A model generated the notes under the pieces. It made no database searches. It worked only from the letters and a program-made list of their open reading frames with translations, and was not told the origin of the DNA. A program made the translations under genes and the position numbers. A DNA stretch of 63,866 bases, filler included, from Asterionella formosa (taxonomy: Eukaryota): assembly GCA_002256025.1 (NCBI GenBank). It is 11 parts of 11 records of this genome, joined end to end, with 100 filler letters (N's around TTAATTAATTAA, not from the genome) between each part and the next. Parts side by side here need not be neighbours in the genome. Positions count along the whole stretch, not along the records: positions 52,789 to 58,539 come from NKIB01012938.1; 10 more parts are not named here. One strand, 5' to 3'. This document shows positions 963-58,918 of this stretch, in pieces (the stretch's first letter is position 1; each line of letters starts with the position of its first letter).

Positions 963-3531
963 ATGCTAAGAGCCTTAGGTTGGAAAACAGAATTGGAGAA
1001 ATCTGTCAAACGGTTGAAAGCGAATGATCCAAGTTTGACTGAACTTGATCTCCGTAGTAATTCAATTGGTGTTGATGGAGCCAAGGCCATTGCAGAGGCT
1101 CTCAAGGTCAATACTGTCTTGACTACACTTAATCTCGGAAGTAATTCAATTGGTGATGACGGAGCCAAGGCCATTGCAGAGGCTCTCAAGGTCAATACTG
1201 TCTTGACTACACTTGATCTCTATAATAATTCAATTGGTGATGACGGAGCCAAGGCCATTGCAGAGGCTCTCAAGGTCAATACTGTCTTGACTACACTTGA
1301 TCTCGATGATAATTCAATTGGTGATAGCTTACTTAATAAAATCCAAAGAGCAGTTGATGCAAACAAGAACCGCAAACCAACAGTAGCCAACACAACTCAG
1401 CCAACATCATCAAAAACAACAACAAATGCAGCACATCCTTCTTCCCCAACAACTCCAACACCAAGCAGTAACAATCCCACTGATCCAATTTCCATAGGCC
1501 GGTCGAAAATGAAGGAGGCCATGGAAAATGTGAATTCAAGACCAATCGAGCTTCCTGTGGAATTCATTACTTATTGTACAAACAACTTTGATGATGCCTT
1601 CAAACTTGGTGAAGGCGGTTTTGGTGCTGTCTACAAAGGCAAGGACGACAATCGGTATTTTGCTGTTAAACGCATTCTTTTCAATATCGCTGTTGCACAA
1701 GATAAGGTGAAGGAAGTTAGCAAAACTTTCAAAATTGAATTGGAGGTGAGCTCATGTGTGGTATCATCTATTGGATGTTGTTTCAATTCTTTATGTTTCT
1801 CATTCTTCTCTTTTACTATTTCAGGCATTAAAGAGGTTCCGACACCCTCATATTGTATCTTTGTATGGCTATCATTTGTCCCCTGATTCGCCTTCTCAAT
1901 ACCTGGTGTATGAGTTTGCATCCAGGGGTTCGCTTGATACATTTTATGCGAGTGAACAAAGCATGGCAAGTCTCTCGAGTGAGAGACGACTTCGAATCAT
2001 GTTTGACATTATTCGTGCCATCCACTGCCTTCATACAGAGAAAAGTGACAACTTCATTCTGTTTCATCGCGACATAAAGTCAGCTAATATCTGTCTTGAA
2101 CGAAACTATACTGCCAAGCTGATTGATTGTGGTCTAGCCAAGTTTGTGCCTGTTGATGACTCCATTTCAACCAGTGCAATTCCTTTTTCAGTTCGGAACA
2201 CATCAAGTGGTGGAGTCTTTGGGACACCTGGCTACACATGTCCATGGTATTCTCGTGGACATAAGACATTTGAAGCATCATGTGATGTTTTCTCGTTTGG
2301 CATTGTCATGATCGAGCTTGTGACAGGCTGCCTCCAAAATGATAAGAATAGGTTGGGAGATTTCTATGATCGCTACATTCAAGAGTGTGCAGGTTACTCA
2401 TTGGTGGACGATGTTGATACTCTTGCAGAGGAATGGGAAGATGGAAATCTGGCCTCTGTGTGCTCATTAGCCATTCGTTGCATTCAGACCAAACGCGAGA
2501 AAAGGCCAAAGACTATTGAATTGGTGGAAGAAATGGGTCGACTTGTAAGTCAAACACATCATAATGTTGGTGGATTTCCCACAGCATCCTGTGGTGGAAA
2601 TATGGGAACACTGAGCTCGAATGAAAATGCTGAACTTTGTTTTTTGTGCGCCAAACTTTCAACTCCTGTTTCCATTTGCCAAAACCATTCCACATGCCAA
2701 CAATGCTTTGAGGATCATGTCCATATGCATCTTGGTGATATGACCATTCAGTGCCCAATCGTTGGTTGTGACCAGTTTTTTTCAAATAAGGAAATGTTCA
2801 ATAACCCTTTCATGTCCCGCAATCTGTATGACCTTCACGTGAAGAAACAAGATGAAAATGGCAAATGGTCAAAACTTTATCAGCACCAAAACGAGATTCT
2901 CAAGCAGATCACTCGTGTTGCCAGTCAATTGTCACGAACAACACAGGCCCTTGCCAATCTTACAGCTGGAGTGGATGCAAAGTGTCCCAGAATTGTCTAT
3001 ATTGTACCACTCAATGAAAAAAGGGAACCAATCTGGAAATGGCCAAAAAACTGGATAAAAACTGAAGTGCAGATTTTCTTTGTTTGTCAGCATTCATTTG
3101 ATGTTGTAACAGAAAGCTGTATTACTACAAAGGTTACCAAGCAATGGGTGACATGTGTTGCACCTGCCATCAAATGTGCAATGTCACTTCTCAGAGCTGC
3201 TATATCTGCTGGCTTATTTACCACTGGGATTCATTTTCCAATAGAATCGATTGAGAAATTTGTCTTGGATATGATAGTTGATCCACTTACAAAACAGCTC
3301 ATCGCAAGGACTGAAGAATTCCTCACAGGCATAAGTGCTACTCAAAATAATTCTATTCTTGAATAGGATAGGAAGAAACTTACTGAAATTGTTGGAGCAT
3401 CATATGAAGTAATTTCTCAAAAGGCTCAGAAGGATAAGCATTCTGAGTGGAAGAACCACCTGGTTCCTGTTTTGGACCGTGCTGGTAATATCATATGGGT
3501 GAAGAAGAAATTTCAAGGTTTATATCAATGA
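963..3531 (+). CDS. LRR(RI/NLRC3-like x4)-IRAK/Pelle-like TKL kinase-RING-like finger-coiled coil-C-terminal domain (copy A); premature TAG at 3364-3366
   Basis: Exons 963-1745 and 1825-3531, with a 79-nt intron 1746-1824 (GTGAGC...TTTCAG) giving ...KIELE/ALKRFRHP. Kinase motifs GEGGFGAVY, AVKR, HRDIKSAN, DCG, GTPGY, DVFSFG. Cys/His pattern CFLC...CQNHSTCQQC...CPIVGC. ATG 963 is chosen by homology to the paralog ATG at 54284, although the ORF is open from 693. The frame continues 54 codons past the TAG to TGA 3529-3531. Confidence 0.85.
1037..1333 (+). repeat. Tandem 84-nt (28-aa) LRR units of copy A
   Basis: Repeated aattcaattggtg(a/t)tga(c/t)ggagccaaggccattgcagaggctctcaaggtcaatactgtcttgactacactt; about 3.5 units. 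Confidence 0.95.
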
Positions 3532-5772: not shown

Positions 5773-5872
5773 NNNNNNNNNNNNNNNNNNNNNNNNNNNN
5801 NNNNNNNNNNNNNNNNTTAATTAATTAANNNNNNNNNNNNNNNNNNNNNNNNNNNNNNNNNNNNNNNNNNNN
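5773..5872. other. Assembly gap with synthetic TTAATTAATTAA spacer (same at 11644, 17515, 23381, 29248, 35112, 40974, 46833, 52689, 58540; plain gap 14684-15438)
   Basis: Identical N44-TTAATTAATTAA-N44 pattern; the spacer places stops in all six frames. Confidence 0.97.
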
Positions 5873-11057: not shown

Positions 11058-11757
11058 AATAATACTAGTAGAATCAACACATTGGCATTGTTTGATATAT
11101 AAATGTACCCAATGTATATATATGTATGTTAAATTGCTTTCGATTAATTTATTTAGATGCTAAATATTTAATTTAAAAAACAGAGTTAATGTTCACATTT
11201 ATGTAACTCATATAAATCGCCATTTTCCGAGTAAGCCGACCCTCATGTAGAAAATTGGTATGTAGTCGACATAATCCGTGCCAAAATAAGCTGCTCGGCA
11301 ATGAGGGTTCCGATATTCGATCCAACTATTTCGGACAGAGGAAGTACCAGTTACTCTGACCTATGCTCCGTAATAAACCATCAGCCAGCAAGGGCAGTAA
11401 ACGAAAGTGTGGTCGCTGATATTACTGGTATGCATTTCGGTCCTGCAAGCAAACATACTAACGAGTTTCATTTTTTCACGGAACAATAGCACTACCAGGT
11501 GCCTACGACCATTCTCCTTTGCCTTGTTGCTATCGAACAATAAAGGAATATCATGCAATCAAATGTTCATCAGATCCCTGAAGAATACCTTGACGCCCAA
11601 CGAGCGGCGATTGAAGCTGTCTATGTCGGACGTGCCACACTGGNNNNNNNNNNNNNNNNNNNNNNNNNNNNNNNNNNNNNNNNNNNNTTAATTAATTAAN
11701 NNNNNNNNNNNNNNNNNNNNNNNNNNNNNNNNNNNNNNNNNNNAAACACAACTCTCC

Positions 11758-14422: not shown

Positions 14423-15497
14423 GATGTTGCCTTAACAAAAAAGAGAGAGATACGGGAAGTGACGCGGATCGAGTGGAGCACTAGGCTATTTTATGCAATA
14501 AAGGAACTGACAAACAGAACGAGCAATGCCAATCAGCATTGACATAGAAGAAAGATTGCCAGTAAACTAGAAACGAGCGGAGGCACGACGTGAATCTCAA
14601 TAGGAAGTGACGTTCTAAATTATGGAACGTTCGAAACCCGGAACCTTGTTTTGGCGGGAACAAGGAAGGACCTACTATGCATANNNNNNNNNNNNNNNNN
14701 NNNNNNNNNNNNNNNNNNNNNNNNNNNNNNNNNNNNNNNNNNNNNNNNNNNNNNNNNNNNNNNNNNNNNNNNNNNNNNNNNNNNNNNNNNNNNNNNNNNN
14801 NNNNNNNNNNNNNNNNNNNNNNNNNNNNNNNNNNNNNNNNNNNNNNNNNNNNNNNNNNNNNNNNNNNNNNNNNNNNNNNNNNNNNNNNNNNNNNNNNNNN
14901 NNNNNNNNNNNNNNNNNNNNNNNNNNNNNNNNNNNNNNNNNNNNNNNNNNNNNNNNNNNNNNNNNNNNNNNNNNNNNNNNNNNNNNNNNNNNNNNNNNNN
15001 NNNNNNNNNNNNNNNNNNNNNNNNNNNNNNNNNNNNNNNNNNNNNNNNNNNNNNNNNNNNNNNNNNNNNNNNNNNNNNNNNNNNNNNNNNNNNNNNNNNN
15101 NNNNNNNNNNNNNNNNNNNNNNNNNNNNNNNNNNNNNNNNNNNNNNNNNNNNNNNNNNNNNNNNNNNNNNNNNNNNNNNNNNNNNNNNNNNNNNNNNNNN
15201 NNNNNNNNNNNNNNNNNNNNNNNNNNNNNNNNNNNNNNNNNNNNNNNNNNNNNNNNNNNNNNNNNNNNNNNNNNNNNNNNNNNNNNNNNNNNNNNNNNNN
15301 NNNNNNNNNNNNNNNNNNNNNNNNNNNNNNNNNNNNNNNNNNNNNNNNNNNNNNNNNNNNNNNNNNNNNNNNNNNNNNNNNNNNNNNNNNNNNNNNNNNN
15401 NNNNNNNNNNNNNNNNNNNNNNNNNNNNNNNNNNNNNNTATCATTGTTGTGCCTCACATCAATAACGACCAAACAAACAACCATCCACCCACCCACC

Positions 15498-37600: not shown

Positions 37601-39379
37601 TTAAAAACCTTATTCGAAATCATGCCACAAATACCGGTAGGTGAGCAAACCCATCACATGGGGTACATAGCACCTAGATGCCTCACATGGGGCATGGCTG
37701 GATTCAAGCTTAGACTGTTACATGAACATGCACAACTATGTACAATAGACCCCCTAATAGCCGTGCTAATGCTGCTATGAACATACGTACTGCTACATCT
37801 ATATTCATAGTCACAGTCATGATCACGCCTAATGCAACAGCGTACTGTACCAGGTACCAGCATATTTGCAAACAATGTAATACACTTTTTTTGCCAAGTA
37901 TAAAGGCGAGTTTAAGAAAGACTACTACAGTACTACAGCGCTGATCACAGAATTTAGTGGTGCGTAAGCTACATGGACCTCCGGGTCCCGATAGTTACTA
38001 ATTCCTAATAACGACCAATACACCATGACGAAAGGCGCTATCCAAGCGGCCAACCAAGCAAAGAAATGAACAAATCATACATAGGGGACATAACCATAAG
38101 ATAGTAATGAAATCCGACAGAAAGAGCATGCAGAAAGAGGAGGATATGGAAAAGCAAACAAAGATTAACACAGAGTGGTGAAAAACAGCGATTGCATGGA
38201 TGTCGATTTGGCTTTTTCACAAACACTACGCACAGTTGGGGAATTCATGGCAATGGTATCAACAAAACGCAAACAGAAGAAGAACCAGGCAAAGACAGCA
38301 ACAATAGAAAAGAAAAGAAGAAGTTTAACCCCTTTTTCACTACAGTTAGCGCTATTGCAGTGCAAGAAGCAAGAAGAATACAATAATGACGATATGTTAA
38401 ACATTAACAGGAATAAAGAAGAAGGCAGAGAAATAAAGAAGTCACTGACAAAGAAATTGCGCCAGAGCTGGATGTGCTGCTCACAGCAATAATTTTAGTG
38501 ATAATGAAGACAATGATAAAAACAATGAGTTGGCAGCCCTGGAATCACCAATTGTTATGGAGACTTCAACTTGAATCACCAGAAGTGGGGCCAAAATGTA
38601 AACCTTTAACCCAATCCACATTCACCATTCCATTCTCTGGCTGGCACAAGAAGTGCAGTCATAGAGAACTGAACCAAGAACAAGCAAAGCTACCACAATT
38701 ATTTTTAGACCACTTCCATACAAGGAAGTGACTACCAACCAAACCTTTCCACCGCCCCACCTTATATGGGCCATGGAGCGCAATGAAGGCAACTCTAGAA
38801 ATAGAGTAGTACGAATGCGCTATAAAAATGATTAATATATATGGCTACATAGGATATATGCCTTGGGTACCCGAGGCAGCCCTTGTAGAAGCTGGTATAT
38901 AATTATTTAGCTTAGATGTTACGATTTTTTCTATACATAAAACGCTACAGTGTAGTTGTTATGAGCGGCTAGAGAATCCTGCATCATGCCATCTCTGCCT
39001 TGACTGGCCATGACGAGACCATGACGAAAACAACAAATTTCTCCATGGAAAATGAGAACAATGCTATGCTATTTGGTACATAAATTATGGATCATTTATT
39101 CAATGCAGTTGTAGAAGAATTATTGTGATATCACTAATAATGACAAGGAAATTGAAGTCGCTGATGGCGCATTGCTTCACATAGTTGAGACAATGCACAA
39201 ATCAAACGACGAAGTTATGACGAGATTAACACTTTCACAGTATGCAACATGCTACACTACGGCAATCTGTCGGTCGAACCAAATTTTGTTTGATTCATTA
39301 TTTAACAATATCAAATAATAGACCATTGATATTTTCAAAATGACTTAACAAGTGCTGATCCAGTCGGTGACTCCATATG

Positions 39380-39526
39380 ACTAGAAATTTGCTGACAACG
39401 ACTAGAACTTGCTGAATACAACTAGAAATTGCAGACTACGAATAGGATTTGCTGAGTATACATAGAATTTGCAGACTAAGAATAGAATTTGCTGGCTACG
39501 AATAGAATTTGCTGACTACCACTAGA
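39380..39526 (+). repeat. Minisatellite, ~7 units of 20 bp
   Basis: Consensus a(c/a)tagaatttgctgactacg, without unique spacers. Confidence 0.9.
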
Positions 39527-40552: not shown

Positions 40553-40949
40553 ACTTTTCGAAATTTCGTCTACGTATGAGTGTTAATTATGTGGTACTTC
40601 ACATGCATTAATGCCACTCTTCACGTAAAAAAGATTACTTTTAACTGTTTTATGTGAAGTTTTAACTGTTTCATGTGAAGTTTTCACAATGAATTTTGAA
40701 CGCGAGACTGAATTAGTTGATGTTTCAAATAATTCATTTGACTTTTCGAAATTTCGTTTACGTACGAGTGTTAATTATGTGGTACTTCACATGCATTAAT
40801 GCCACTCTTCACGTAAAAAGGTTACTTTTAACGGTTTCATGTGAAGTTTTAACGGTTTCATGTGAAGTTTTAACGGTTTCATGTGAAGTTTTCACAATGA
40901 ATTTTGAACGCGAGACTGAATTAGTTGATGTTTCAAATAATTCATTTGA
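40553..40949 (+). repeat. Tandem duplication (~188/208 bp) with nested 20-bp subrepeat
   Basis: Units start near 40553 and 40741; the second has one extra ttttaacggtttcatgtgaag-type subunit. Confidence 0.92.
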
Positions 40950-53361: not shown

Positions 53362-53422
53362 TGAATGATGAGTATGATGTGGTGTGTGCTTTTGAAATTT
53401 CTTGCTTGATGCCGATCCTCAA

Positions 53423-53585
53423 TGAAATCGCCCATAAACACATTATACTCATGTAATTTTCATCATATGAATGCATTTTTTTCCTCGCTGAAATCGCCCA
53501 TAAACACATTATACTCATGTAATTTTCATCATATGAATGCATTTTTTTCCTCGCTGAAATTGCCCATACACACATGATACTTTCG
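53423..53585. repeat. 66-bp tandem repeat x~2.5
   Basis: tgaaat(c/t)gcccata starts at 53423, 53489 and 53555. Confidence 0.9.
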
Positions 53586-54283: not shown

Positions 54284-57200
54284 ATGCTAAGAGCATTTGG
54301 TAGGAAAACAAAATTGGAAAGAAATGTCAAACGGTTGAAAGCGAATGATCCAAGTTTGACTGAACTTAATCTCTTTAATAATTCAATTGGTGATGACGGA
54401 GCCAAGGCCATTGCAGAGGCTCTCAAGGTCAATACTGTCTTGAATGGACTTTCTCTCTCTTATAATTCAATTGGTGATGACGGAGCCAAGGCCATTGCAG
54501 AGGCTCTCAAGGTCAATACTGTCTTGACTACACTTGATCTCATTAGTAATTCAATTGGTGATGACGGAGCAAAGGCCATTGCAGAGGCTCTCAAGGACAA
54601 TACTGTCTTGACTGCACTTTATCTCGGAGGTAATTCAATTGTTGAAGATTTACTAAAAGATATAAAGAAACTCATTGATGCAAACAAGAACCGCGATCCG
54701 ATTGCTGCAATTCTTTCAAAGATGCAAATGAATGAACGGAATGCTGACCTTCAAATAAAAGGTTGTTCAGAACTTTGGGACTTGGCTTTGAATGAAGACA
54801 ACAGGGTGGCAATTGCTGATGCAGAAGGTATCACTACGATTCTGTCTGCAATGAAGACTCATTCCTCAAATGCTACTGTGCAAGAAAAAGGTTGTGGAAC
54901 ACTTCAGAACTTGGCTTTGAATGACAACAACAAGGTGACGATTGCTGAAGCAGGAGGTATCACTACGATTCTGTCTGCAATGAAGATTCATTCCTCAAAT
55001 GCTAATGTGCAACACTATGGTTGTGGAGCACTTTCTAGCTTGGCTTCGAAGAATAACAACAACAAGGTGACGATTGCTGAAGCAGGAGGTATCACTACGA
55101 TTCTGTCTGCAATGAAGAATCATTCCTCAAATGCTAATGTGCAATACAATGGTTGTGCAGCACTTGATGACTTGGCTGATAGTAATGAAAATAACAAGGT
55201 GGCAGTTGCTGATGCAGGAGGTATCCCTATGATTCTGCCAGCTATGAATAATTTTTCATCCAATGCTAATGTACAATTCCAAGGTTGTTCAGCATTTTGG
55301 AACTTGGCTGACAATAATGAAAACAACAAGGTGATTATTGCTGAAGCTGGAGGTATTCCTACAATTCTCTCTGCGATGAGGACTCATTCCTCAAATGCTA
55401 GGGTTCAAGAGTATGGTTGTGGAGCACTTTGGAAATTGGCTTTGAATAATGGCAGCAACAAGGTGACGATATCCAATGCTGGTGGAAAAGCTGTAATTGA
55501 GTCTGCTATGCGAAATTACTCATCCAATGCTGGTGTTCAAGAAAATGGTAATGAAGCACTTAGCATATTGACCCAACATTGGAAAAAGACAGAAAAAGAA
55601 TTGGAAAGATATGTCAAACTGTTGAAAGCAAACAATCCAAGTTTGTCGTACCTTGGTCTTGGATGGAATTCAATTGGTGTTGGTGGAGCCAAGGCCATTG
55701 CAGAGGCTCTCAAGGAAAATACTGTCTTGACTAAACTTTCTCTCACAGGTAATTCAATTGGTGTTGACGGAACCAAGGCCATTGCAGAGGCTCTCAAGAT
55801 CAATAATTCTGTCTTGACTAGACTTTATCTCGGAGATAATTCAATTGGTGATGACGGAGCCAAGGCCATTGCAGAGGCTCTAAAGGTCAATACTGTCTTG
55901 ACTACACTTGATCTCTTTGGTAATTCAATTGGTGTTGACGGAGCCAAGGCCATTGCAGAGGCTCTCAAGGTCAATACTGTCTTGACTACACTTCATCTCT
56001 ATTGTAATTCAATTGGTGTTGATGGAGCCAAGGCCATTGCAGAGTCTCTCAAGGTCAATACTGTCTTGACTACACTTGATCTTGATCGTAATTCAATTGG
56101 TGACAGCTTACTAAAAGATATTCAAATTTTGGTTGAGGCCAAGAGGGACCGCAAACAAAATCCTTCTTCCCCAACAAAGCCAACACCAAGTGATAGCAAT
56201 CCCACTGAATCCATTTCCATAGATGAGTCGATACAGAAGGCAGCTACAGAGCTTCACAACTTGCCTTCGAATGCCAACAACAATGTGCCACTTGATGAAG
56301 CAGGAGGGCTTACTGCTACTTTAATTTCGTCTCAAATTGATGCAATTCTTTCAAAGATGCAAGAGGATGAGCAGAATGATGTCATTCAAATGAATGGTCT
56401 CTTGAAGCTTGCGAACTGGGCTGAGAATAATTACAGCAACCAAGTGACAATTGCTAAAGCAGGAGGTATCACTACAATTGTGTCTGCGATGAAGGTACAT
56501 CCTAAGAATGCTGAGGTTCAACAATGTGGTTGTGAAGCACTTATTCACTTGGCTGAGAAGAATGACATCAACCAGGTGAAGATTTCCAATGCTGGTGGAA
56601 AAGTCGCAATTGAGTCTGCTATGCGAAATCACTCATCCAATGCTGGTGTGATTGAAAAAGCTAAAAGAGCACTTTCTATCATTCAACCAATCCCACCAAC
56701 AACACCTAATAATCTCATTTCCATAGGTCGATCGAAAATGAAGGACGCTATGGACAATGTGGATTCAAGACCAATCGAGCTTCCTGTCGAATTCATTAAT
56801 AGTTATACAAACAACTTTTATGAAGCCTTGAAACTTGGTGAAGGAGCTTTTGGTGTTGCCTACAAAGGCCAGATTGAAAATCGGGTCTTTGCTGTTAAAC
56901 GTATGCTTGCCAATATTGCTGTTGAGAGCGATAAAGTGGAGGAAGTTAGAGATATTTTAAAAAGAGAATTGCAGGTGAGCTCATTTGAGGTATCATCTGT
57001 AGCATGTCGTTTCAAGTCTTTATGTTTCTCATGCTCCTGTCATACTGTTTCAGGCATTAAAGAGGTTCCGACACCCCAATATTGTAACTTTGTACGGTTA
57101 TCATTTGTCCTCTGATTTGACTTCTCTATACCTGGTATATGAGTTTGCATTGAAAGGTTCGCTTGATACATTCTATAAGAATGAACGAAGCAGAGCAAGA

Positions 57201-58539
57201 CTCTCGAGTGAGATCCGACTTCAAATCATGTACGACATTATTAGTGCCATCCACTTCCTGCATACTGTTACAAATGACTACCTTGGTCTGTTTCATCACG
57301 ACATCAAGTCATCTAATATCTACCTTCAACGGAACAATGCTGCCAAGCTGATTGATTGTGGTCTAGCCAAGTTTGTTCTTGTGGATGAATCCATTGAAAA
57401 CAGTGCAATTACTTTTTCAGTTATGAACACATCACATGGTGGAGTCTTTGGGACATCTGGCTACTTATGTCCATGGTATTCTAAGGGAGGTAACAAATAT
57501 GAAGCATCATGTGATGTTTACTCATTTGGCATTGTCATGATTGAGCTTGTGACAGGCTGCCTCCAAAATGATAGTGAGAAGTTTCGAGATTTCTATGAAC
57601 GCTACTTCCCATACGATTTTGAAGGAACTCAAGCAGAGGCACTGGAGTTGGCAATTTCAAAATTGGTGGAGGATGTTGATCCTCTTGCAGAGGAATGGGA
57701 AGATGGAATTCTGTCCTCGGTGTGTGCATTAGCCATTCATTGCATTCAGACGAATTGCGCAAAGAGGCCAAAGACTAATGAGTTGGTTGAAAAGTTGGAT
57801 CAACTTGTAAGGCAAACAGATCCTGATGTTGGTGGTGGAAGGCCCAAAGCATCCTTGAATAAAGGGCCTCATGGACCCTATGAGTCACCCTACGAGTGGT
57901 CTCAAACAACAGAATTGGAAAAATATGTTGAACGGATAAAAGAAAATGATCCAAGTTTGACTGCAATTGATCTCGTAGCCAAATCAATTGGTGACGATGG
58001 TGCCACGTTAACTTTGTCTCCGATTGCTGCAACTCTTTCAAAGATGCAAATGAATGAGCAGAATGCTGACTTTCAAAAAGAAGGTCTCGTTGAGCTTGCG
58101 AACTTGGCTAAGGCTAAGAATAATGAGAACAACAAGTTGATAATCGTTGATGAAGGAGTTATCAGTACAATTGTGTCTGAGAATGAAAACAACCTGAAGG
58201 CAATAGCTGATGAAGAAGGCATCGCTAGGACTCTGTCTGCAATGAAGGTACATCTAAAGAATACAGAGGTGCAAAAATATGGATGTGAAGCACTTTTTGC
58301 CTTGGCTGTGACTAGAAACAACCAGGAGACAATTGCTAAAGAAGAAGGTATCACTATGATTCTGTCTGTGATGAAGATTCATTCCTCCAATGCTGATGTG
58401 CAACATTATGGTTGTGCAGCACTTCAGAACTTGGCTTTGAATAAAAACAACCAGGAGACAATTGCTAAAGAAGAAGGTATCACTACAATTCTGTCTGCAA
58501 TGAATCATCATTCATATAATGCTGATGTTCTAGAATATG
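54284..58539 (+). CDS. LRRx4-ARM-LRRx6-ARM-IRAK/Pelle-like kinase-LRR-ARM protein (copy B), 3' end in gap
   Basis: Exons 54284-56974 and 57054->58539; 79-nt intron 56975-57053 at the same position and phase as in copy A. Kinase motifs GEGAFG, AVKR, HHDIKSSN, DCG, GTSGY; ~43-aa ARM-like repeats GGITTILSAMKxHSSNAxVQxxGC. Confidence 0.88.
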
Positions 58540-58640
58540 NNNNNNNNNNNNNNNNNNNNNNNNNNNNNNNNNNNNNNNNNNNNTTAATTAATTAANNNNN
58601 NNNNNNNNNNNNNNNNNNNNNNNNNNNNNNNNNNNNNNNC

Positions 58641-58918
58641 GTAGCAGCAGTCATAGACATATGGTGTTCTGTTGCTTGCTTATTACTCCAACTATTGGTT
58701 TTTAGTTTTACGATCATACGATCCTAAAACTATGATGATTTACTGTCCCACTGCAGTAGCAACAGTCCTGAACATATGGTGTTCTATTGGTTTTTAGTTT
58801 TACGATCATACGATCCTAAAACTATGATGATTTCCTGTTCCACTGCAGTAGCAACAGTCCTGAACATATGGTGTTCTATTGGTTTTTAGTTTTACAATCA
58901 TACAATCCTAAAACTATG
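58641..58918 (+). repeat. Left arm of long inverted repeat, made of ~91-115-bp tandem subunits
   Basis: catatggtgttct recurs at 58658, 58773 and 58864; 58641-58785 is nearly identical to the reverse complement of 63721-63865. Confidence 0.9.

Follow-up and report, generated by a model that had tools for sequence, protein, structure and literature searches.

In a 63,866-nucleotide stretch of Asterionella formosa DNA (NCBI GenBank assembly GCA_002256025.1; 11 parts of 11 records joined end to end, hereafter called the window), we describe two paralogous genes, A and B, that combine arrays of leucine-rich repeats (LRRs) with a protein kinase and, in gene B, also with armadillo (ARM) repeats. The 84-nt LRR units of both genes are almost identical in DNA, silent sites included, except for four codons per unit which accumulate replacements and which, in a structure prediction, line the concave face of the repeat solenoid. 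We consider it probable that these are LRR repeats with high internal conservation (HIC), shaped by concerted evolution and by diversifying selection on the binding face, and that they form the sensor modules of soluble LRR-(ARM)-kinases of the RLK/Pelle/IRAK type. The evolutionary side of this proposal is supported by the data, while a receptor function is what we infer from it. Throughout, positions are coordinates along the joined window, and the spacing between two loci is their spacing within it.

LRR units and the distribution of variation

Tandem Repeats Finder (TRF) places arrays of 84-nt repeats at 1035-1325, 54356-54625 and 55662-56102 (88-91% matches), and, counted in register, genes A and B together hold 11 full units and three terminal half-units, besides one degenerate unit at 57957. 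A 27-nt stretch of the scaffold occurs 11 times with no more than one mismatch and not once in any of 100 shuffles, and a repeat pattern far beyond chance is confirmed. The unit translations have the 28-residue period and the LxxLxLxxNxIGxxGAxxLAxAL-type consensus of ribonuclease inhibitor (RI)/NLR-type LRRs, and each array is a single continuous open frame in which, as the initial annotation of this DNA had stated, the units are not separate exons.

The same annotation had described the units as near-identical including their synonymous sites, and this is borne out by the counts. Outside codons 3, 5, 7 and 8, the 11 full units are ~97% identical, and the 20 strictest scaffold codons gave a proportion of synonymous differences (pS) of 0.035 and of nonsynonymous differences (pN) of 0.012, with scaffold pS ranging from 0.035 to 0.067; pN and pS are pairwise counts on a sample of 11 full units from two genes. 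Even the leucine codons are nearly fixed per position (L1 TTG, L4 CTT, L6 CTC, L23 CTC). Averaged by array pair, DNA identity outside the variable block is 92-98%, and amino-acid identity from unit to unit has a mean of 80% (range 68-89%). The units at 55643 and 55727 are more diverged, the latter with a 3-nt insertion.

Variation is not spread evenly over the unit. With the x positions set a priori by the LRR motif, 26 of the 84 columns vary among the full units, comprising 11 of the 12 columns in codons 3, 5, 7 and 8 vs 15 of 72 elsewhere (Fisher p=4e-6). These four codons, 14% of the sites, hold 6.11 of 9.60 (64%) of the summed nucleotide diversity and reach a pN of 0.58; codons 13, 14 and 25 vary moderately. 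Inside the variable codons, mean diversity is 0.60 at positions 1-2 vs 0.20 at position 3, in line with the annotated preference for the first two codon positions, and the third positions are mostly T or A, and in codon 3 the A at this position has been retained by 13 of 14 units. All 14 pentapeptides that had been listed (DLRSN to DLDRN) are present exactly as written, and all 14 variable blocks differ from one another.

Tree-free bounds require at least 18 changes at the eight first and second positions of the variable codons and allow at most eight at the 24 third positions of the other codons. Per site, the former positions have changed at least 6.75-fold faster by these bounds and ~9-17-fold faster by pairwise counts. 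What the arrays display is a small number of hypervariable codons per unit with an excess of replacements, as seen in pairwise counts, located on the predicted binding surface.

Scaffold conservation compared with internal controls

The window contains its own yardsticks for the age of the repeats. Between gene A and the first array of gene B (B1), the 66-nt LRR scaffolds differ by 2.5% and the 18-nt variable blocks by 29%. Over the same pair of genes the introns differ by 16.5%, the N-caps by 11%, the C-caps by 24-29%, and the kinases (1596-2556 vs 56825-57818) by 16.5% in DNA, with pN 0.157 and pS 0.194. A further control is provided by copy C, a decayed paralogue, the scaffold of which departs from the unit consensus at 35 of 212 sites (16.5%), as compared to 2.5% in intact units; its variable codons are about as far from the consensus (33%) as those of intact units (34%). 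The scaffold is ~6-fold less diverged than these three neutral or near-neutral controls (intron, kinase silent sites, copy C), which supports its exceptional conservation, and concerted evolution between the paralogues A and B is observed, with 2.5% in the scaffold set against 16.5% in the intron, a kinase pS of 0.19 and 16.5% in copy C.

Since the scaffold is 97.5% shared, while intron, caps and kinase differ by 11-29% in DNA, the LRR units are younger than the duplication that gave rise to genes A and B. The leucine codons L4 and L6, which stand between the variable codons, have a pS of 0.09, so that variable block and remaining unit are of the same young age and the replacements in the former are recent; among the matches listed in a metagenome search, 41 arrays of another organism have 0.30-0.88 at these codons. 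Codon bias as the cause of the scaffold freeze was rejected, as different leucine codons are fixed at different positions and the silent sites of ARM repeats and kinase have diverged.

In the metagenome search, which used an amino-acid-level pattern, most of the matches listed are arrays of one GC-rich organism, and a single short locus among them (L006) resembles the window closely. Among these matches, the scaffold pS of the window (0.053) is the lowest of 47 arrays compared, the others being 0.24-0.46 in the 41 arrays of the GC-rich group, some loci of which are duplicates of each other, and 0.13-0.41 in five AT-rich arrays. Entropy at positions 3, 5, 7 and 8 is 2.9-3.7 bits in 396 unique units from the GC-rich organism's metagenome loci among the matches listed, and 36 of 120 related proteins, which supplied 69 units, gave 2.9-3.8 bits. 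At the amino-acid level, the pattern is a common property of RI-type LRRs; the silent-site freeze is the special feature here.

As an observation in its own right, the GC-rich organism (~60-66% G+C; loci L001-L121, e.g., L005, L075 and L112) has very many RI-type LRR arrays in metagenome contigs among the matches listed. Their amino-acid scaffold (GAKAIAEALKVNAV) is almost that of the window and the same positions vary, with diverged silent sites; LRR proteins of haptophytes, mortierellaleans and Capsaspora are among the named proteins related to these arrays.

The ARM repeats of gene B (54702-55570, 56279-56676 and 58024-58539) present a weaker version of the LRR pattern: pN is 0.41-0.78 at codons 26, 29, 30, 33, 36, 37 and 40, and the silent sites, with a pS of 0.21, are not homogenized. 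In a low-confidence model (single sequence, pLDDT 55.5), usable for helix positions only, the variable ARM codons fall in the long third helix.

Predicted structure and domain composition

In Pfam, the LRR repeat corresponds to LRR_6 of the RI/NLR class, which has 28-29 residues per unit (E-values in Table 1). For the second LRR module of gene B, an AlphaFold2 model (pLDDT 97.4, pTM 0.92) predicts a horseshoe of six strand-helix units in which the beta-strand covers unit positions 3-5 in six of six units. The model supports an arrangement in which positions 3 and 5 flank the buried leucine on the concave sheet and positions 7-8 come next, before the asparagine ladder, so that the variable residues would sit on the concave face, where the initial annotation had placed them. 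Foldseek matches to this fold include the LRR domains of NLRP1 (TMq 0.88) and NOD2 (0.87) and RI (0.81), and also NLRP3, tropomodulin and axonemal LRR proteins.

Gene A encodes 774 residues in the order N-cap helix, three full LRR units and one terminal unit (28 residues), Ser/Thr/Pro-rich linker, protein kinase, Cys/His motif and uncharacterized tail. In gene B, a cap-LRR(3+1) cassette is followed by ~7 ARM repeats, a cap-LRR(5+1) cassette, a linker, ARM repeats, the kinase, one degenerate LRR and more ARM repeats. Gene A resembles gene B minus its first LRR-ARM cassette. The ARM repeats match Pfam ARM_LRRK2, and the Pfam families found in gene B are of the ARM_LRRK2, LRR and Pkinase types; a Pfam scan of genes A and B found no death domain, NOD (NACHT/NB-ARC), TIR, ROC-COR or WD40. 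Downstream of its kinase, gene A has a Cys/His motif (2638-2769) in which the residues, by our own reading of the sequence, are spaced in a C3HC4-like manner, and 40 of 74 relatives have the same spacing. The 250-residue C-terminal region of gene A had no Pfam family at E<=0.001, with only sub-threshold matches and no RING at E<=5, and its structure-atlas scores (0.79) are below use.

The kinase had been annotated as IRAK-like, a claim which stands for the fold: its closest solved relatives are plant RIPK, PBL2, BIK1, SYMRK, Pto and BRI1, plus IRAK1/4 (E 1e-17 to 1e-22; ~1e-17 for IRAK1/4). It does not stand for the architecture, as a death domain was not found. The best named relatives are diatom proteins of 31-36% identity. 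HRD is present in 64 of 69 relatives, and an unusual DCG takes the place of DFG in 66 of 69; the gene B kinase has HHD instead of HRD, which makes it a non-RD kinase. The cytosolic location that had been annotated agrees with a crude hydropathy scan, in which no hydrophobic segment of membrane-spanning strength was found, the highest 19-residue window (1.66) lying inside the kinase.

Expression, family size and read support

Among the matches listed, 20 of 24 rows are public runs containing the gene B stretch; they come from 13 studies, and nine are recorded as RNA. Contigs from four runs (X1-X4) were mapped to this 4.3-kb stretch. Those from a freshwater metatranscriptome of independent origin (X2; records 9-16) agree with unique parts of gene B to within 0-1 differences, and those of a polyA library (X3) match gene B equally closely. 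In both RNA sets, contigs that reach 56975 pass directly into the opening letters of exon 2, while the DNA contigs X1 record 4 and X4 record 28 carry on into intron sequence; the 79 nt of the gene B intron are therefore removed by splicing. Gene B is transcribed and spliced in lake samples. Between 55538 and 55707, i.e., over the N-cap and the first unit of the second array (B2), a single RNA contig follows the DNA collinearly with 0 differences.

In run X1, 54,992 contigs were placed at >=95% identity, 14,433 of them at >=99% and 40,559 at 95-99%, and for 29,429 two positions were possible. Four of five LRR bins reach a summed depth of 0.58-1.2 million and the first three ARM bins one of 0.6-1.3 million, as compared to 0.10 million in the remaining LRR bin (55650-55794, covering the two diverged units) and to 819-1,007 for single contigs exact to unique parts. 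This hints at hundreds of near-identical LRR units, as a rough indication, given that summed depth is no copy number. At several joints in X1 (54689->56148, 54306->57908 and others) the end of one LRR cassette is joined directly to the linker after another; connections of this sort between units far apart are most likely due to paralogues in which the cassettes are arranged differently. As contigs break off at branch points, letter differences in placed contigs are uninformative on scaffold variants; stretches without long contigs prove nothing.

Gene organization in the window

The window DNA is nuclear and eukaryotic, with short GT..AG introns and ~40% G+C. Genes A and B both lie on the + strand, 53 kb apart, and the interval between them in the window holds housekeeping genes encoding MTHFR, a PP4R3 homologue, a GTPase and a methyltransferase. 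For the MTHFR, a raphidophyte transcript with only 50% identity is the best named relative; taken with the diatom relatives of the kinase, this gives a broad placement of the freshwater alga among the ochrophytes. Gene B starts at 54284 and its reading runs into an N run at 58540 that hides the 3' end (Table 1).

Table 1. Features of gene A, gene B and copy C, in window coordinates (ORF, open reading frame).
Feature	Position	Strand	Basis
Gene A exon 1: N-cap helix 963-1034, three full LRR units 1035-1286, terminal half-unit with C-cap helix 1287-1370, Ser/Thr/Pro-rich linker, kinase N-lobe (GxGxxG 1608)	963..1745	+	ORF; ATG conserved with gene B; Pfam LRR_6 E=9.6e-24; units in register
Gene A intron, 79 nt, GT..AG; 83.5% identity to gene B intron; near-neutral yardstick	1746..1824	+	Sequence, frame check, identity
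Gene A exon 2: kinase remainder (HRD 2065, DCG 2125), Cys/His motif with C3HC4-like spacing 2638-2769, uncharacterized C-terminal region, stop codon 3364-3366	1825..3366	+	Pfam Pkinase E=1.1e-24; PDB relatives; motifs
Copy C, decayed paralogue: N-cap remnant, three LRR units with indels 51723-51440, ARM remnants 51319-50918, frame breaks and stop codons	50918..51800	-	nhmmer; sequence; ORFs
Gene B exon 1: N-cap, LRR array B1, ARM array, second N-cap, LRR array B2, linker, ARM array, kinase N-lobe (GxGxxG 56837)	54284..56974	+	ORF; Pfam LRR_6 E=1.9e-43, ARM_LRRK2 E=2.1e-29, Arm E=3.4e-19; RNA contigs with 0 differences
LRR array B1: three full 84-nt units (54356, 54440, 54524) and terminal half-unit with C-cap (54608)	54356..54691	+	TRF, units in register, nhmmer
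ARM repeat array, ~7 units, 132-nt period	54702..55570	+	TRF, per-codon table, nhmmer, low-confidence model
Second LRR module of gene B (B2): N-cap helix 55589-55642, five full units (55643, 55727 [87 nt], 55814, 55898, 55982), terminal half-unit with C-cap 56066-56149; stretch modelled	55589..56149	+	Units in register, nhmmer, AlphaFold2
Gene B intron, 79 nt	56975..57053	+	Sequence; absent from RNA contigs of two studies, present in DNA contigs
Gene B exon 2: kinase remainder (HHD 57294, DCG 57354), third N-cap and one degenerate LRR 57957-58006, more ARM units 58024-58539	57054..58539	+	ORF; Pfam Pkinase E=4e-21; nhmmer; motifs

Copy C stands head-to-head with gene B, ~2.5 kb upstream, and has indels in three of three LRR units; such a decayed copy shows gene birth and death at the locus. 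Intergenic tandem repeats of 66, 92, 20 and 21 nt lie at 53416-53581, 58692-58918, 39379-39526 and 40826-40892, two of which flank gene B. Ten pairs of 44-N runs (5773-5872, 11644-11743 ... 58540-58639), with 12 bases inside each pair, recur every ~5.86 kb and look unlike assembly gaps, and a 755-N run at 14684-15438 looks like a scaffold gap.

Proposed mechanism and alternatives

In the mechanism that we favour, LRR units would continually be duplicated and lost and would undergo gene conversion, both inside an array and from one paralogue to another, whereby their DNA is kept almost identical; this concerted evolution would span genes A and B in spite of their distance in the window. Replacements would pile up at unit positions 3, 5, 7 and 8 of LxxLxLxxN, which line the predicted concave face, and would be driven there by diversifying selection for new binding specificities. 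Each N-cap-LRRn-C-cap cassette could then act as a ligand-binding sensor, jointly with the ARM repeats, and, with the cassettes fused in one soluble protein to a kinase of the RLK/Pelle/IRAK type, binding may be translated into phosphorylation. That gene conversion is the homogenizing process and that positive selection acts here, rather than targeted mutation, is suggested by the sequence patterns; ligand binding by the cassettes and a role in non-self recognition, e.g., of viruses or parasites, are the functions that would fit them.

A more far-reaching version can be formulated. With a fixed frame and four randomized paratope positions, hundreds or more RI-type LRR and ARM units, no NOD and a kinase as output, the family could be an independent innate protist recognition system against viruses or parasites, renewed by unit exchange and possibly even in clonal growth. 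We put this forward tentatively, as it appears doubtful at present.

Several points weigh against the favoured mechanism. A fixed scaffold with variable x positions is general in the LRR class and by itself no mark of a special system. The sample is small, with 11 full units in two genes, and the pairwise pN/pS values are non-independent and do not stem from a recombination-aware site model; moreover, positive selection is indistinguishable from site-targeted mutation with the present data. Collapse or polishing during assembly of a very repetitive family could have pulled scaffold bases to the consensus and thereby overstate the freeze. As for the public reads, run X1, the best DNA match, may be the source sample itself and hence no independent support. 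The unit order within the arrays is without support from long independent sequence (public contigs have 100-260 nt), only the one RNA contig at 55538-55707 crosses a unit boundary, and no public contig spans an array. Finally, a pN/pS of ~0.8, as found between the A and B kinases, is higher than usual in such a domain and, like the HHD motif of gene B, a sign that constraint on the output domain may be relaxed.

The same evolutionary mode could also serve a function other than defence, such as self or mating recognition, or a kinase adapting to fast-evolving endogenous partners. Fungal repeats of comparable kind were first found in allorecognition genes, according to the passages of Dyrka et al. 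drawn on here (PMC4986451), RI-type LRRs occur in many non-immune proteins (axonemal, tropomodulin, RanGAP-annotated), and the Pfam scan gave genes A and B none of the domains NOD, TIR and death domain. Nothing in the data set separates a defence from a non-defence role, and we regard the latter as rather unlikely without being far-fetched.

Part of the pattern might be an artefact, in which assembler collapse or consensus polishing exaggerates scaffold identity and the arrays combine units of separate loci into mosaics. The family is indeed rich in repeats, as seen from the X1 contigs that fit two places, many joints connect distant units, array-spanning contigs are lacking, and the window contains the 755-N gap. 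On the other hand, scaffold variants have survived (e.g., GAT/GTT at codon 13, GAC/GAT at codon 14 and several singletons), near-identity is found in the short X1 contigs as well, the RNA contig crosses N-cap and first unit free of differences, and the 18-nt variable block is shorter than a read, which makes the per-site pattern independent of unit order. An artefact of this extent is improbable.

Programmed or targeted diversification of the variable codons, by site-directed hypermutation or by micro-conversion from a cassette pool, maybe mitotic, would assign selection a minor role. The initial annotation had offered positive selection or targeted mutation side by side, each combined with shuffling or conversion of repeats; homogenization together with either of them fits the data, but the targeted mechanism gained no support. 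It could account for the extreme rate excess at positions 1-2 of the four codons, for the third positions that are mostly T or A, for 14 of 14 blocks being distinct, and it would have a very large pool of near-identical units as donors. Nevertheless, no reverse transcriptase or other diversifying enzyme was found in the 16 window ORFs scanned (frames of >=150 amino acids and the C-terminal part of gene A), and the adenine rule of a diversity-generating retroelement fails at codon 3, where the third-position A is kept; within the window such an element was rejected. The arrays are complete in the germline gene, which makes an assembly as in the variable lymphocyte receptors (VLRs) of lampreys unneeded. 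Taken together, we consider targeted diversification very improbable.

Nucleotide-level selection on the scaffold, e.g., as a shared small-RNA target or RNA structure, could freeze silent sites and leave the x positions merely free. Silent sites are indeed conserved well past the neutral yardsticks, and in Ectocarpus some repetitive LRR exons are predicted miRNA targets, as mentioned by Zambounis et al. (PMC3341825) in the part of that paper used here. Free variation, however, predicts a rate at the x positions no higher than neutral, as opposed to the many-fold higher rate observed, and the silent sites within the variable block (L4, L6) are conserved too; the prospect of this explanation is remote. 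Hardly tenable is a recent burst of unit duplication with only relaxed constraint at exposed positions, i.e., with neither homogenization nor positive selection: no positions of an LRR are under less constraint than the exposed x positions, which vary in unrelated organisms too, but neutral change cannot outpace silent sites (pN 0.58 vs pS 0.035-0.09 in scaffold and L4/L6), so that the rate excess at the variable codons excludes neutral relaxation, while bare recent duplication is excluded because the units, with the scaffold of A and B shared far beyond intron, caps and kinase, are younger than the gene duplication.

Comparison with known repeat systems

Several established families resemble genes A and B in one of their parts. 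The kinase shares the fold of IRAK, RLK and Pelle kinases, although the window genes are without a death domain and a transmembrane segment and have DCG for DFG. IRAK sensu stricto was rejected on the missing death domain in spite of the similar kinase (E ~1e-17). A plant-type RLK, with signal peptide, extracellular domain and single transmembrane helix, does not agree with the maximal hydropathy in the crude scan. Neither gene has a NACHT or NB-ARC Pfam family, as an NLR/STAND receptor would. The ARM repeats match those of LRRK2, but membership in ROCO/LRRK2 was rejected, with no ROC GTPase, COR or WD40 found.

In the LRRs of plant NLRs, receptor-like proteins (RLPs) and RLKs, the hypervariable xxLxLxx residues lie on an exposed beta-strand under diversifying selection, with unequal crossing-over and gene conversion among paralogues. 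These LRRs differ from those in the window in being of the 24-residue class, extracellular or NB-ARC-coupled, and in units which are not near-identical in DNA. A fixed, near-identical DNA frame with few specificity-determining codons per unit is also the principle of transcription activator-like (TAL) effector repeats and of designed repeat libraries; their fold, ligand and organisms are unrelated to the window, and the likeness is an analogy only.

The closest parallel in evolutionary mode is found in the WD40, ANK and TPR repeats of fungal NLRs (Podospora nwd/het-e), for which the relevant parts of Dyrka et al. (2014, PMC4986451) describe repeats that evolve in concert, with about four surface positions of each under positive selection. 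Like the window, these HIC repeats combine near-identical units, concerted evolution within and between paralogues, few hypervariable codons on the binding surface of a solenoid, and a modular family. According to the same parts of that paper, LRRs are absent from fungal NLRs, 85% amino-acid identity is used for HIC, and repeat-induced point mutation (RIP) is proposed as the mutator. In contrast, the window repeat is an RI-type LRR, its output a kinase and not a NOD ATPase with a death effector, and its mean unit identity of 80% is slightly under the fungal 85%; RIP is a fungal process. HIC has recently been extended to LRR-annotated proteins across the tree of life, where, in the passages available to us, it is rare and linked to NLR architectures, and where the brown-algal case is called a sort of weak HIC (Ament-Velasquez and Saupe, 2026; PMC13449251).

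In that brown-algal case, the LRR-ROCO and LRR-kinase genes of Ectocarpus, 24-residue LRRs correspond to 72-nt exons that undergo exon shuffling, and the selected sites are on the concave face (Zambounis et al., 2012; PMC3341825). As far as the sections of that paper used here go, the systems have in common a stramenopile alga as host, LRRs coupled to a signalling enzyme without TIR or NB, and pseudogene copies nearby; the Ectocarpus LRR domain is a recombination hot spot, and positively selected concave-face sites are a pattern shared with the window. The window differs by its 28-residue RI-type units placed head to tail in one exon, by the absence of ROC-COR and by a much stronger silent-site freeze. 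Exon shuffling of the Ectocarpus type is unsupported here, with arrays that are continuous frames and an RNA contig (55538-55707) collinear with the DNA.

Lamprey and hagfish VLRs, which are named in the same paper (PMC3341825), likewise have their diversity on the concave LRR face and use cassette-like units with a common frame. VLRs are somatically assembled from flanking cassettes into an incomplete germline gene, whereas the window arrays are complete in the genome; somatic assembly is unsupported in the window, and the comparison may serve as an analogy only. In Tetrahymena, a massive young expansion of LRR genes was described, with one LRR per 90-bp exon, exon shuffling as the proposed process, and some genes fused to kinases (Xiong et al., 2019; PMC6564038). 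The likeness lies in a young, lineage-specific protist LRR expansion with some arrays joined to protein kinases; the difference, in the separate 90-bp exons and in hypervariability of the binding face, which is not described in the portions of that study considered here.

The literature searched contains no account of a family that combines LRRs, ARM repeats and a kinase in this way, nor of RI-type LRR units with such a freeze in an alga. The mode of evolution is known in kind from fungi, plants and brown algae; what is new here is its occurrence in an RI-type LRR with a kinase output and no NOD, in a stramenopile, together with the strong silent-site freeze.

Significance

The combination of HIC and hypervariable sites, until now mainly a matter of fungal NLRs, is hereby extended to RI-type LRRs, to a kinase-coupled architecture without NOD and to a stramenopile. 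The locus bears the strongest signature that would be expected of a fast-evolving recognition surface, judged by the controls within the window, i.e., intron, kinase, ARM repeats and pseudogene. Little is known about the way in which unicellular algae recognize parasites such as viruses and chytrids, and there are few candidate receptors. In this context, the LRR-ARM-kinase genes described here represent a concrete candidate family for recognition in algae.

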